From a virus (Duplodnaviria > Caudoviricetes): a DNA stretch of 64,000 bases. Within the stretch, counting starts at the first letter, position 1, and each line of letters starts with the position of its first letter. The position numbers were made by a program, and so were the translations under genes. Under the pieces are notes generated by a model. It made no database searches. It was not told the origin of the DNA and saw only the letters and a program-made list of their open reading frames with translations. Below are positions 11,908 through 43,046 of the stretch, one piece after another. The DNA lies in IMG/VR virus record IMGVR_UViG_3300037424_000993, positions 1 through 64,000 of that record; one strand, 5' to 3'.

Positions 11908-12119
11908 TGGGTGCCGCCTTTCCCCGGCAACCACCACCTGCCACGCCTCGCGCCAGGCCACTTGACGACGCGGAGCGCTCCGCAGTCGAGGCACCACTCA
12001 GTCACGATCGGTCTAGCAGACGGAGCGCCATGGACTAGGACAACGCTACCGGGGGTCCAGATACCACGAGTGCCACTCGGCGCGAGGTAGCGGGAGCGCT
12101 TGTGTCGGCATCGGCTCAC
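11904..12119 (-). CDS. Hypothetical protein
   Basis: Fills the gap between coupled ORFs; CLDC motif. Confidence 0.45.
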   Translation of the reverse strand: MSRCRHKRSRYLAPSGTRGIWTPGSVVLVHGAPSARPIVTEWCLDCGALRVVKWPGARRGRWWLPGKGGTQ

Positions 12120-12550
12120 GAGGCACCGCCTTTCCGCGGAGGCCACGGATTGACCCGCACAGCTCCCCTGTATTGCCCGTAGTGAATAAGGCAAAGGTGA
12201 CGATCCTCGCCTACTTCATGAGCGCAGTCGGGACACAGCGGAGCGTCGCAGGTTTTCCCGCCGCCCATTGGGTAATCGCAGAGCAGATCGGCAAAGTAGC
12301 CGCAGGTGCAAACGTCGAGCTCGCCAGGCTTGAAGCTGCCACAGATGAACATCTCAGCGCCGCCGCCTGCCATTGTTTTCTCTCTTGCAATCTGGACTTC
12401 CAAAATCTCCTTTGGAGTGCGCGTTACAAGCTGCCCTTTCACAACGTGACGCTTCTCGCTCTCGGAGGCCGGGTAACCATGGCCCCATCCCAATGCCTCT
12501 TTGGCTTCGTACAGAGACGAAGGGCGCGACTTGCCTTTCAGGCAGGTCAC
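12116..12550 (-). CDS. Zn-finger hypothetical protein
   Basis: CTCG..LCD..CDAPLCPDC..LCLIH; GTG overlaps the integrase stop. Confidence 0.6.
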   Translation of the reverse strand: MTCLKGKSRPSSLYEAKEALGWGHGYPASESEKRHVVKGQLVTRTPKEILEVQIAREKTMAGGGAEMFICGSFKPGELDVCTCGYFADLLCDYPMGGGKTCDAPLCPDCAHEVGEDRHLCLIHYGQYRGAVRVNPWPPRKGGAS

Positions 12551-14010
12551 TGGGCGCCTCCGGAGCAGGCTGTGATGCCCCACTTCTGACCGGGGATAAC
12601 CTTGAGTCGGTGGGCTGTCTTGACGAGCCCCCGCAGAGGTGCCAAATACTGGGTGCGGATCCCACTATGGCCAGTATTCGCGTGCTCTAGCGAGTCTCCG
12701 CGAGGCGAAAACTCCGAAAACCCTAATAGTTGTAGCCGAAACCTGACCCTTGAGGTGCTAGTGGGGTAACTCCCGTGGAGGTTCGAGTCCTCTCCTTCGC
12801 ACTGCAGGAAAACAGCTACTTTAGGGCGGCCCGCGCACACCCCGAAAACGCGCTTTTCGACGCCGCCCCCAGTATCGCCCCCACTATTGCCGCTCACCAG
12901 GTCGACCACTTCGGCGGCCTGCTTCTCGTCGGCGTGGCTGTAGCGATTGGTCGTGCTCGCCTGCTTGTGGCCCACCAGGAAACCCACGCCCAGGGTCCGG
13001 CCGCCGCTTTGGTCCATTAACTCGGTGGTCCGAGCATGGCGCATATCGTAGGCCTTCACCCGGCTGGCGATGTGCTCGGGGATGCCGGCGGCCCGAGCCG
13101 CCTGCCTGAGCGACGTGCGGTAGTCTAGTGTCCGGACCAGCTGGCCCCCATTCCGGAGCTGCCCGAGCCGGTGGATCTCGGCGTGGTAGCAGCCCTCGAG
13201 CAGTTCGCACGCGTGCGGGCTCAAAGGCACCTTTCGCTCCCAACGATTTTTATCGACATCCTCAGTCACGTCGAGGTGGCGCTGGCCCGGGTGCCAGTGG
13301 GTGCCAACGCGGAAGCCATCCCAGAATCCCGGGCGTAGCGCCGTCTCGAACATCAGCGCGAAGTAGGGCCGGAGCGGCCATTGCTCGCCGCTCTTTCGGT
13401 TTTTGCGGCAAAGGTCGGGAAGGTGCGGAATCAGCTGGCGTGCCGTCGCCGCGGTGAATCCCTTGGTCCAGCCGCTCGGCGCTTGCTTAGCCTTGGTACC
13501 CAAGCTCTTGTGCGGGCGGTCAGGGAAGCGTGGGATCTGCCCGATCCAGCTCTTGATTTCAGCGAACTTCAACACCTGCATCAAAGTGCTCAGCTCCTTT
13601 TGCACCGTGCTGTACCGGACGCGCTTCAGGCGCTCGGATTGGTACGATGCGAGCGCTCCGCGCGTGACGTCGCACAGCCGCTTGAATCGCGGCAAAAGGT
13701 GCACGCGCAGATGAATCTTTCGCAGGTTCGCTGTTCGCTCCGTGATTTCACCACCGGACTTTTCGGCCAGGTACGCCGCTGCCACCTCCGACAGTTTCGC
13801 TGTCGGATCGTTGCCTGTCTGAACCTCGTTTTTCCACTGTCCGGAGTAGACCCAGTCGAGCCGATCCGCCTTCCACCGCGTAGCGCGCGCCAGATCGTCC
13901 GCTGGAATGACGGCCGTCTTGAAGTCGTGTCTCGTGCCCTCGTGCGTAAATCGCAAGCGCCACCATTTGCCGGTGTGCGTAAGCTGCGGATCGCCAGGCT
14001 TGCGCGCCAT
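12547..14010 (-). CDS. int: Tyrosine integrase containing attP in its 3' coding region
   Basis: TALRPG (R), YDMRHAR (RH), LVGHKQASTTNRY (H/Y); adjacent excisionase. Confidence 0.92.
   Translation of the reverse strand: MARKPGDPQLTHTGKWWRLRFTHEGTRHDFKTAVIPADDLARATRWKADRLDWVYSGQWKNEVQTGNDPTAKLSEVAAAYLAEKSGGEITERTANLRKIHLRVHLLPRFKRLCDVTRGALASYQSERLKRVRYSTVQKELSTLMQVLKFAEIKSWIGQIPRFPDRPHKSLGTKAKQAPSGWTKGFTAATARQLIPHLPDLCRKNRKSGEQWPLRPYFALMFETALRPGFWDGFRVGTHWHPGQRHLDVTEDVDKNRWERKVPLSPHACELLEGCYHAEIHRLGQLRNGGQLVRTLDYRTSLRQAARAAGIPEHIASRVKAYDMRHARTTELMDQSGGRTLGVGFLVGHKQASTTNRYSHADEKQAAEVVDLVSGNSGGDTGGGVEKRVFGVCAGRPKVAVFLQCEGEDSNLHGSYPTSTSRVRFRLQLLGFSEFSPRGDSLEHANTGHSGIRTQYLAPLRGLVKTAHRLKVIPGQKWGITACSGGAQ
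12645..12888. repeat. Five arm-type integrase site candidates, (C/G)CCA(G/C)TAT, flanking the att core
   Basis: 12645-12653 (inverted), 12661-12669, 12670-12678, 12868-12876, 12880-12888. Confidence 0.65.
12749..12801 (+). other. attP core = 3' half of tRNA-Leu(GAG)
   Basis: Anticodon loop TTGAGGT, stem strand GCTAG, long variable arm, T-arm GGAGG-TTCGAGT-CCTCT, acceptor strand CCTTCGC-A. The 5' tRNA half is absent. Confidence 0.9.
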
Positions 14011-14274
14011 TTAGGCTGCCCCTTCGAGTTCGGCTGCAATGTCCGCAATCTGCTTGCTCGAACGCACGAGGGCGCGCGCCTTCCTGCGGCGCTGTTTAGC
14101 CACAGTGGGCGTATGCGCGTGCTCGGTCATGTAGGCGTCCAGCTCGCTCGGTTTGAACATTGGTTTGCGTCCGATCATGTGTCGTTCGATCTTGGGGTAC
14201 ACGTGCTTACGGAACGTGGTGGGGCTCACCCGTAGATAGCGGGCCGCCTCCTCGAGCGTTAGGTACGGGCTCAT
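14011..14274 (-). CDS. xis: Excisionase / MerR-like HTH
   Basis: YLTLEEAARYLRVSPTTFR...FKPSELDAYM; directly upstream of int. Confidence 0.8.
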   Translation of the reverse strand: MSPYLTLEEAARYLRVSPTTFRKHVYPKIERHMIGRKPMFKPSELDAYMTEHAHTPTVAKQRRRKARALVRSSKQIADIAAELEGAA

Positions 14275-15688: not shown

Positions 15689-15756
15689 GCGTGAAACTCC
15701 TAAACTAGCCGCTAACCGCGGCCGGAAAGATTGCGCCGCTCCCGGGCGGCCGTTAG

Positions 15757-16106
15757 TGGACCCGCTGGGAATCGAACCCAGGTCCGCGAAGCCTACAAGC
15801 CATCGTCGTCCACATGCTTGGTCGAGGTACGGTCGGCTAGCCTCGACAGCCGTTGACGCCAGGGGGTCGGCGCCTCCACCACCCGCTATTTCTCGCTGGT
15901 CGCTCGCGGGATTGTTACCAGCCAGCCCGTGTGGTGACGCCGCTGAGATACTCGGGCTCCTTGCCCAGCGACGGCTTAGGCCGCTTGCGCGACTTCGGCG
16001 ATTGCGTTGGTATTCGCAATTGGAGTTGCTCATTTGGTCAAGCCGGTACGAGCGCCGGCTGCATGCACGATGACCCTTCGATTCCACGTCGAAACCATTC
16101 GGGCCC
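15757..16106 (-). ncRNA. ssrA: tmRNA, tag peptide ANTNAIAEVAQAA*
   Basis: 5' GGGCCCGAATGGTTTCGAC; 3' CTGGGTTCGATTCCCAGCGGGTCCA; acceptor stem with G3.U70; GCATGC/GCATGT helix; tag ORF 16017-15976. Confidence 0.95.
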
Positions 16107-16113
16107 AGAACGG

Positions 16114-16187
16114 TTGCGGGAGCCCGATTTGAACGGGCAACCTCTTGGTTATGAGCCAAGCGAGCTACCGGATTGCTCCATCCCGCA
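16114..16187 (-). tRNA. tRNA-Met(CAT), initiator-like
   Basis: Complete cloverleaf of 74 nt; anticodon loop CTCATAA; T-loop TTCAAAT; A11-U24; CCA not fully encoded. Confidence 0.93.
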
Positions 16188-41343: not shown

Positions 41344-43046
41344 GCGTCTACCGTGACGACGGTTCGCCGCTCAACCTTGACCGACCACCGAACTTTGCGA
41401 TCAGAGGCTTTGCCGCCAACCGTAGGCTGACAGGTGATGTATTGATTACCAGTGTCCTCAGCAAACTGCATGTCCAGCCCGCTCGTGGTAGCGGCGCCAG
41501 AGCTCAACACCTCGCCAAGCTCCACGTCTTCGCCGGAACGACGGCGGGCGGGAACCAAATATTTCCCATTCTCGTCAATGCTTCCGTCGTTGGTTTCCAC
41601 GGTAACGTGGAACTCGTAAGTGAACCCTTCCGACAGCGCGACTGCGTTACCCGCCTTGTCGCGAAGCAGCGAACTCGCCGCTGGTGAATCCGCGGTGTCG
41701 ACCTCGACGCTGAACGAGTCGACTGTTTCAGCCTGCGCGTATTGAGTCGTGTGGCGGATTCGGCTAACGGCTGTGCCTTCGCGCTCGACCTCCTCATAGG
41801 TTGCCCCAGCGCCGTCCGCGTCGGTTCTTGTGCGGCGCGTGAGCACGTCGCCGGTGGCCGTCTCGTCCCAGAGCTTTTCGTTCGTGCCAGCGCCGGACTC
41901 GAAGTGTTCGAGCGGCGCATCCGTGAGCCTCAGGTCTTGACTGACTTCAACTTGCGCTGAGGTGACGGATACAACGACTGCACCGCCTGCGAGGATATCG
42001 ACGTTCGTTAGCGCTCTGACAGTAGCCGTCGGGACGGTCGAACCTCCCCACTCGGCAGTGTCTGTGCCAGCCGCGCCCCACGAAAAGAAACGGTGATTCG
42101 CGTTGTCAGCGTTGTTCCTGCCGTTCCCGCTGTGGTTGTGAGGCACGCGGTAGTTGCCGGTTGTCGCGACAACACCGAAAAACGCTAGCGATGAAAACCC
42201 AGCTATCGACGTCCAACCCGACACGTTGCCCGAGTCGTCCTCGGTTGCCGAGGACATCTGCGTAGCGCGGCCACTAGTGCCGTCGAATCGTACTAGGCGG
42301 TTGTCGGCAACGGCTCCGGGGGCGAGGGTGTACTGGGTGTGAGGATCGCCTGTTGTGAGACCGGTAAGCGAGTTGTGTGCGTGGTTGTGGCTGGTATCCG
42401 ACTTGTTGCCCAGAGCCGCGTCTACCCCGATAAAGTGCCCACCAATCGTGCTCGAATCCGGCGTGTAGTTGGTGGGGCTAGCGGCGTAGGCGAGGTTGCC
42501 GCCGTCGAGTGCGTCTCCACCGCCGTCTTCGTGAGTGGAGGCGTGGGCGTTCGGATCGCGCGGGTCGCCTGAATCGTCGAGCGTTGCGTCAGTAACGATT
42601 GCGTTCAGTTCGGCAAGCGTGGAGAAGGAGGTGCCGGCAGGCAGATTGCCGATCTCGGTGTACTTCTTGCTGTCGCCGTCTTCGCTGTCCTCGATCAGCA
42701 CCTTGTCGGCGCTGACTGGCGCTGCCTTCTCGGCGATTGCGGCGATTTCGCCAGCTACGTTGTCGTGGATGGCGTCGGTGTCCGATCCCGCACCGCCGCC
42801 GACCGTGATCCAAGACGACCCGTCCCAGATCGACAGCACCCCCGTGTCGGTAGCGAAGTAGGTGTCGAAGACGATCGTACTCGACGCAGGTCTAGCTGCG
42901 GCTAGCCCGTAGTTTTTCCACAGCGTTGACGCGACGATATCGATCAGTGCCTGACCAACGCGCGCGGCCGTGTTCGCGCCAGCGCTGGTCTCATCATGGA
43001 TAACGTCGGCAGCTGCGTCCGCTGTTGGTCGTGATACTTCAGCCAT
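41340..43046 (-). CDS. Tail fibre protein
   Basis: HASTH, HNH, GDPHTQY fibre-type motifs; follows the baseplate gene. Confidence 0.7.
   Translation of the reverse strand: MAEVSRPTADAAADVIHDETSAGANTAARVGQALIDIVASTLWKNYGLAAARPASSTIVFDTYFATDTGVLSIWDGSSWITVGGGAGSDTDAIHDNVAGEIAAIAEKAAPVSADKVLIEDSEDGDSKKYTEIGNLPAGTSFSTLAELNAIVTDATLDDSGDPRDPNAHASTHEDGGGDALDGGNLAYAASPTNYTPDSSTIGGHFIGVDAALGNKSDTSHNHAHNSLTGLTTGDPHTQYTLAPGAVADNRLVRFDGTSGRATQMSSATEDDSGNVSGWTSIAGFSSLAFFGVVATTGNYRVPHNHSGNGRNNADNANHRFFSWGAAGTDTAEWGGSTVPTATVRALTNVDILAGGAVVVSVTSAQVEVSQDLRLTDAPLEHFESGAGTNEKLWDETATGDVLTRRTRTDADGAGATYEEVEREGTAVSRIRHTTQYAQAETVDSFSVEVDTADSPAASSLLRDKAGNAVALSEGFTYEFHVTVETNDGSIDENGKYLVPARRRSGEDVELGEVLSSGAATTSGLDMQFAEDTGNQYITCQPTVGGKASDRKVRWSVKVERRTVVTVDA

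Follow-up and report, generated by a model that had tools for sequence, protein, structure and literature searches.

Can the integration of a temperate phage alter the integrase that the resulting prophage encodes? The question is raised by a window of 64,000 nucleotides, the whole stretch of DNA analysed here, which corresponds to bases 1-64000 of the 75,517-bp virus record IMGVR_UViG_3300037424_000993 and has a GC content of 62%. The integrase (int) open reading frame (ORF) of this phage, at 12547-14010 on the minus strand, possesses 487 codons and consists of a lambda-type tyrosine integrase core (residues 1 to ~376) coupled to a 3' extension that runs through the phage attachment site, attP. 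The virus record carries direct terminal repeats and is rated 100% complete. Given that this is a complete virus genome with terminal repeats, the phage DNA is not integrated, as a first-pass annotation of the locus had proposed, and at the site itself the 75.5-kb record holds a partial tRNA alone. The locus is likely the attP of a free temperate phage with a Polyangiaceae-like host, where integration would truncate the integrase (Int) and sever the operon to which int belongs.

The attachment site lies within the integrase gene

attP occupies ~242 bp inside the 117-codon 3' extension of int and is composed of three P-arm sites, a 54-bp core and two P'-arm sites. The common core (12749-12802, plus strand) is the 3' part of a tRNA-Leu(GAG), from C31 via the anticodon loop to A73 plus 1 nt, and lies antisense in int codons 403-421. 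Along the plus strand, at positions 12749-12801, C31 (the final base on the 5' side of the anticodon stem) is followed by the loop TTGAGGT with the anticodon GAG at 12752-12754, by the 3' stem GCTAG and a long variable arm, and then by the T arm, the 3' strand of the acceptor and A73. ARAGORN called no tRNA at the core, where the tRNA is only partial. An identity of the fragment as tRNA-Ser(TGA) was ruled out by the A73 discriminator together with an exact match to an ARAGORN-called tRNA-Leu(GAG). With identity extending from C31 to A73 plus 1 nt and the gene restored, the block represents the anticodon-loop sublocation, class A of Islander (PMC4383910). The core is downstream of the catalytic tyrosine (residue 357) and of every other catalytic residue; the first-pass annotation had placed the tRNA-Leu(GAG) piece at about codons 404-421, beyond the catalytic motifs, and this is confirmed.

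The core is flanked on both sides by arm-type repeats, five in total as had been claimed. The repeat CCASTAT was found in 13 copies within the 64-kb window, where 4.6 would be expected; no such count was attained in any of 100 shuffles. Five of the copies fall within 242 bp around the core, at 12646-52 (minus strand), 12662-68, 12671-77, 12869-75 and 12881-87. The P arm (12646-12677) contains three of these, one inverted and two direct, which integration would move to attR. The P' arm (12864-12887, plus strand) contains the remaining two as direct repeats, CGCCCCCAGTAT and CGCCCCCACTAT, which are translated in the int frame as NSGGDTGGG.

A host tRNA gene and the rebuilt junction

A full tRNA-Leu(GAG) called by ARAGORN in an uncultured Polyangiaceae metagenome-assembled genome (MAG) agrees with the phage at every position (52/52) between the anticodon loop and its 3' end. 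The maximal block of identity between the two is 54 bp and corresponds to 12749-12802 of the window (54/54, no mismatch), providing the exact match to a host tRNA gene that had been sought as attB. Within 301 sampled genomes of the class to which the MAG belongs, the exact stem-plus-core was present in this one only, with four others carrying it with 1-2 mismatches. The 5' anticodon-stem strand of the Polyangiaceae tRNA is CTAGC, with A29 rather than G29, and falls within the (C/T)TAGC previously deduced from base pairing. CTAGC/GCTAG was the stem in 9/10 of the tRNA-Leu(GAG) genes recovered from these hosts, and CCAGC/GCTGG in one.

attL was rebuilt by joining the host left side to the phage right side at the core. 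In the int frame the rebuilt junction reads ACC TCA AGC TAG, resulting in a 421-aa Int that ends ...SYPTSTSS, compared with 487 aa in the free phage. Residue R421 becomes S and residues 422-487 (66 residues) are lost. The TAG stop and the 421-aa product expected on integration were therefore recovered using the tRNA of a real host. The int 3' segment split off in this reconstruction (12547-12748, minus strand) comprises codons 422-487, the stop codon and the final base of codon 421. Integration leaves the tRNA itself unchanged, since the 3' part brought in by the phage has the identical sequence.

Integrated and free relatives

Relatives of Int numbered 821 among 1.8 billion cluster representatives. 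A scan of species-representative genomes using the Int alignment indicated that the relatives are mostly found in Myxococcota MAGs (Polyangiaceae, Sandaracinaceae and 'Myxococcales'). Among the more distant ones, at 27-56% identity, several adjoin a tRNA gene, which is Leu in four loci and His and Lys elsewhere. The catalytic Tyr could be located in 159 retrieved relatives, and at least 40 residues follow it in 108. Peptide signatures of an antisense tRNA T arm were present in the tail of 50 of the 95 relatives with at least 45 residues after the Tyr.

A tRNA-Leu(GAG) is read in the frame used by the phage in 17 representatives, of which seven end exactly in '...STSS' followed by a stop. The junction stop was checked at the DNA level for two of these seven, P0014 (143-kb contig L030) and P0091 (9-kb L038 and 36-kb L039). 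In both, int ends ACC TCA AGC TAG within a full ARAGORN-called tRNA-Leu(GAG), with host genes beyond. Comparison of a free phage, L022 (P0003), with an integrated form, L003 (P0005), showed 78% identity over 1,438 nt. The two sequences diverge precisely where the core ends in the loop, and from there L003 passes into the 5' half of a tRNA-Leu(GAG) and then host genes. Beside int, L003 and L027, both of them integrated, keep the P'-arm pair and have no P-arm repeats, as expected for attL.

The antisense stem-loop-stem, CTAGC ACCTCAA GCTAG, contains two TAGs that are out of frame with each other. Relatives use two of the three possible frames through the tRNA piece, giving either 'CEGEDSNLHGSYPTSTS' or 'CAKERTRTSTGVTPLAPQ'. 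No junction stop occurs in the second frame, and the integrated P0013 reads through the whole tRNA to a length of 501 aa. In the first frame, a host stem of CCAGC places TGG at the position of the stop, and P0005 continues into host DNA (452 aa). In a third lineage of 370 aa (P0009-P0011; L002), int stops before the arm sites and attP is located downstream with a tRNA-Leu(CAG)-like core. The proposal that prophage relatives lose the int tail thus has a mixed outcome: P0014 and P0091 end at this TAG within a full tRNA, and P0013 and P0005 read through. The junction stop is real but contingent on the reading frame and the host stem. A junction stop designed into the whole family was ruled out by the read-through in relatives using the second frame and in hosts with the CCAGC stem.

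Further observations were made on individual relatives. On a 279-kb Joint Genome Institute (JGI) contig (L029, 10001-11040), the Int P0018 ends at ...AGC TAG, and past 'ctagcgc' the sequence departs from the tRNA. No tRNA was called by ARAGORN at the end of P0018, which may reflect damage to the target, elements arrayed in tandem or an identity block that extends further. A Type ISP restriction-modification enzyme of ~1,690 aa is carried as cargo by two integrated elements with an Int of this family (L029, 2326-7395; L030, 1020-6086), and in L029 a DarT/Macro pair is present on the far side of int. Two small contigs of a single 'Pseudobdellovibrionaceae' MAG (L002/L004, 4066-4333, and L005) carry near-identical 370-aa int genes. 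The tRNA-Leu(CAG)-like core follows the int stop in these contigs, and the DNA past attP differs between them.

The integrase and its neighbouring genes

The conserved integrase core (12901-14010, minus strand; codons 1-370) consists of an arm-binding N-domain of three strands and a helix, a core-binding domain and a catalytic domain. The catalytic residues are R226, K254, R324, H348 and Y357, with Y357 located within NRYSHAD and the His-I position occupied by Y321. All five are invariant in alignment A1 of the relatives; in alignment A2, this holds for R226, K254 and Y357, with R324 and H348 nearly invariant. Residues 210-362 match the Pfam family Phage_integrase (PF00589; 32.9 bits, cut-off 27.1), and the PHROG match is to phrog_1 integrase (E 5e-23). 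An AlphaFold2 (AF2) model built on 24 relatives gave a predicted local distance difference test score (pLDDT) >90 across most of residues 1-376, with N-terminal strands at 9-12, 17-23 and 26-32 and a helix at 40-55. The best fold match of this model was full-length lambda Int (1z1b_B, E 4e-7). The catalytic residues, the modelled N-domain and the flanking arm repeats place Int among the lambda-type heterobivalent tyrosine recombinases, with arm binding predicted.

The 370-aa homologues end where the conserved core ends, at codon 370. A tblastn search of the phage collection returned distant integrases only (~26-28% identity, aligned up to residue ~370), and a scan of viral contigs using the Int alignment returned one weak relative only. 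The database cluster representative, P0001, departs from the window Int at a single position close to the C-terminus, residue 483 (R for G). P0001 originates from a 10.3-kb contig, and so represents a near-identical free-form copy of the phage in another assembly.

Directly upstream of int is a gene for an excisionase-like helix-turn-helix (HTH) protein, HTH_17 (14011-14274, minus strand; Pfam PF12728; phrog_66 excisionase), in the position held by uoi in Mx8. Downstream is a gene for a cysteine-rich protein of 144 aa (12116-12550, minus strand) that would be severed from xis-int by integration, and for which no family match was found in Pfam or PHROG. The minus strand from xis to this downstream gene yielded neither a promoter-like nor a terminator-like site. 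The int TGA overlaps the GTG start of the downstream gene in a GTGA (12547-12550, minus strand), with GGAGG located 7-11 nt upstream inside the int tail. A stop/start overlap of this kind (GTGA, ATGA or TAATG) exists in five of the six free forms with DNA, namely this phage, L020, L022, L024 and L026. On the P0004 contig, known by gene calls only, the int stop likewise overlaps the start of the next gene on the same strand. In L022, a purine-rich, Shine-Dalgarno-like run, AGGAGG, is present inside the int tail.

Composition and modelled structure of the 3' extension

GC content at third codon positions (GC3), pooled over the six free forms, falls from 0.84 in the int core to 0.60 between the core and the tRNA piece, and is 0.60 beyond the tRNA piece. 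In the AF2 model, residues 377-458 and 473-487 have pLDDT <50. The sole tail element modelled as a helix comprises codons 459-468 (LVKTAHRLKV; 12607-12636, minus strand; block pLDDT 69). The P'-arm repeat pair is at an equal position in the relatives and yields the 'DSGxDSGG' columns of alignment A1, and 'NTGHSGIRTQY' is similarly a translation of the P-arm sites. Much of the apparent amino-acid conservation in the extension is dictated by the DNA sites. The idea that the whole tail is a conserved protein was ruled out by the reading of the tRNA in two frames and by the drop in GC3 from 0.84 to 0.60.

The extension is open in 6/6 free forms with DNA, given a chance of 1.4-6.2% per genome when flanks were shuffled, and the tails are not alignable. 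Open extensions of this type are read here as the result of selection for ribosome transit across attP, that is, as predicted translational coupling in a leftward early operon.

Comparison with known systems

Judged by sequence, the arrangement is of a kind already known from Mx8, in an integrase without detectable similarity to Mx8 IntP (BLASTP E 6.8; Mx8 is also absent from the tblastn matches in the phage collection). In the Myxococcus phage Mx8 (IntP/IntX), attP lies within int and integration makes a new int 3' end (PMC6070905), and the paper describing Islander lists the Mx8 and SSV integrases as extending across attP and makes an exception for them (PMC4383910). Both phages have a Myxococcota host and an HTH gene, xis-like or uoi, directly upstream of int on the same strand, with no detectable sequence similarity between the two HTH proteins. 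In each, the core is the 3' part of a tRNA, antisense in the int ORF and past the Tyr, and integration alters the C-terminus and leaves the catalytic domain intact. On inspection, Mx8 IntP showed an antisense tRNA T arm and acceptor as 'GVARSTGLEPV', ~65 residues past the Tyr region and ~110 before the end.

The two systems differ in target, which is tRNA-Leu(GAG) here and tRNA-Asp in Mx8, and in the extent of the core, which here is 54 bp and reaches the anticodon loop, compared with the T arm and acceptor only in Mx8. The int stop overlaps the next start here, in contrast to a 48-nt gap in Mx8. The host in this case gives an immediate TAG and the tail is deleted, whereas Mx8 gains a short new tail; 112 Int residues are said to be replaced by 13 when Mx8 integrates. 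The position of the Mx8 attP within int was reportedly described by Tojo et al. 1996 and Magrini et al. 1999. Mx9 has been reported to be similar to Mx8.

In phage lambda, int is subject to retroregulation by sib, an RNA-level element (an RNase III site) located outside the ORF and beyond attP. Common to both cases is an element that affects int, lies beyond attP and is split off by integration, with Int expression differing between phage and prophage. Here, however, the separated element is part of the ORF and is accompanied by coupled downstream genes. Integration-dependent immunity of the mycobacteriophages BPs and Brujita, reportedly established by Broussard et al. 2013, is similar in that attP is in a coding sequence and a C-terminal shortening separates the free-phage from the prophage state. 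The gene cut in BPs and Brujita is the repressor gene, and the lost tail carries an ssrA-like tag (PMC4557955); here the cut gene is int, and the C-termini of the free forms are neither conserved nor tag-like. The SSV-type 'suicidal' integrases of archaeal viruses also contain attP within the int ORF, and integration splits int into two inactive pieces (PMC7253208). In contrast, all catalytic residues of the present Int are encoded upstream of codon 403 and remain together in a single product of 421 aa.

Integrases that extend across attP have so far been treated as curiosities known from Mx8 and SSV. What is new here is a stop donated by a tRNA stem and seen in natural prophages, the wide recurrence of attP within int in one clade, and the stop/start coupling to the next gene. 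The arrangement recurs in myxobacterial metagenomes, with ~50 long-tailed homologues carrying antisense-tRNA peptides and seven representatives ending at the stem TAG, and suggests a general way for myxobacterial phages and islands in which integration rewrites int and severs an operon. The analysis also gives an uncultured 75-kb phage a named host group (Polyangiaceae-like) and an exact attB. For annotation, it serves as a warning that int length in this clade varies with integration state, reading frame and host tRNA stem.

Proposed mechanism and alternative explanations

In the explanation favoured here, int would sit in the middle of a leftward early operon that includes a DUF2303 gene, the xis-like HTH gene, int and then the stop/start-coupled downstream gene. 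Recombination with the host tRNA-Leu(GAG) would rebuild the tRNA, with its 5' half from the host and its 3' half, identical in sequence, from the phage. The int frame would then meet the TAG in the host-derived 5' anticodon-stem strand (CTAGC), giving the prophage form Int421 with the change R421S. The operon would be cut, and the genes downstream of attP would shift to the far end of the prophage. The prophage would presumably express Int421 and the Xis-like HTH_17 protein from one operon for excision. Int421 is expected to be fully competent catalytically, because the catalytic domain is intact and tail-less 370-aa homologues exist. The lost tail may be a mostly disordered read-through constrained by the DNA, in which stop codons are avoided to let ribosomes pass over attP and couple to the gene that follows. 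Should the tail influence Int activity at all, it would do so in a regulatory and not a catalytic way, and the switch proposed in the first-pass annotation, in the sense of a changed Int activity, is hypothetical.

A number of observations weigh against this explanation. No lysogen of the exact phage was found, and the attL-specific pattern (host CTAGC, core and P' arm) had 0 matches in metagenome contigs. The matching tRNA of the Polyangiaceae MAG (contig CAYMQT010000302.1; L013, 931-1548) is already flanked by a decayed relative, and its 3' half may thus be derived from an element. Whatever the origin of the 3' half, the junction stop would come from the host 5' half of the tRNA. One free form with DNA, L025, has no stop/start overlap with the next gene. 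A weakly recurrent motif, L-A-x-x-A-x-x-L-G-V/I/L, is present near the C-terminus of eight free-form tails and is the source of the only above-chance similarities between tails (14/55 pairs, p<=0.05); this C-terminal helix motif suggests that the tail is not purely filler. Additionally, the distant members P0043, P0064 and P0071 possess a conserved helical domain of ~85 aa after the antisense-tRNA segment, and in these the attP core seems to lie between two real protein parts. No Pfam family was found for the post-core domains of P0043, P0064, P0071 and P0024.

Of the decayed Int in L013, only the C-terminal ~125 residues of the core are left, with 56% identity. It uses the other frame and was read through the whole tRNA.

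The most serious alternative, with a probability a little below even, is that the tail is a neutral by-product without function as protein, with selection acting on ribosome transit only (through coupling or the avoidance of polarity on downstream early genes) and the severing of the operon as the relevant effect; Int itself would be unaffected by loss of the tail. Consistent with this are the stop/start overlap and the ribosome-binding site in the tail, seen in the DNA of five free forms and, from gene calls, for P0004, the lack of codon bias in the extension, the reading of the tRNA piece in two frames, the mostly disordered tail model and the existence of 370-aa homologues. However, the downstream gene in the 370-aa lineage starts 270 nt past the int stop and is uncoupled, and coupling is therefore not obligatory. 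The recurrence of the C-terminal motif among free-form tails also argues against a tail without function.

It is doubtful, although possible, that the tail operates an activity switch like that of Mx8. In such a switch the tail, and especially the helix at 459-468, would be needed for or would modulate integration, so that Int487 integrates and Int421 is excision-competent and weak in integration. The anatomy is that of Mx8 IntP, with the Tyr followed by a spacer of ~45-65 aa, an antisense tRNA piece and a tail of ~66-110 aa, and the new int 3' end formed when Mx8 integrates has altered properties (PMC6070905). The openness of the extension is maintained, the tail motif recurs between P0001 and each of P0002, P0004 and P0007 (p ~0.02 each, all on one segment), and the motif segment coincides with the AF2 helix of block pLDDT 69. 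Against this, the 370-aa homologues have no tail, P0012 has no motif, the tails are alignable only in segments dictated by DNA sites, and GC3 is 0.60 in the tail compared with 0.84 in the core. Furthermore, no sequence similarity to Mx8 IntP was found, and the junction stop is not conserved, with relatives using the second frame instead gaining long host-coded tails.

A broader reading, which is offered tentatively and is held to be improbable, is that a large and previously undescribed Myxococcota integrase clade keeps attP in a translated extension of int. The post-attP helix, and the ~85-aa domain of more distant members, would then be a removable regulatory module, and integration would turn an integration-proficient Int into an excision-only one and uncouple a translationally coupled block of early genes. 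On this reading, the prophage state would be recorded by the recombination event itself, in the protein as well as in the operon.

An artefact of chance or annotation, in which an accidental open frame in GC-rich DNA adjoins an ordinary attP beside int and Int functionally ends near ~370, is very improbable: the GC content, the non-coding-like composition of the extension and the alignment of distant phage homologues only to residue ~370 are compatible with it, but no stop codon occurs before 12547, 6/6 free forms are open despite the low chance of each, five of these and P0004 (by gene calls) end on the next start, and antisense-tRNA peptides occur in about half of the family members with long tails.

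Other RNA genes of the phage

The phage encodes a transfer-messenger RNA (tmRNA) at 15754-16187 of the window on the minus strand (Rfam RF00023, 95 bits), for which ARAGORN predicted the tag ANTNAIAEVAQAA. A tRNA-Met(CAT) is located a few bases upstream of it, and both are in the leftward operon of int, ahead of the DUF2303 gene, xis and int. On the plus strand at 42481-42569, ARAGORN called a tRNA-Arg(GCG) whose 89 nt exceed the usual length of an Arg tRNA.

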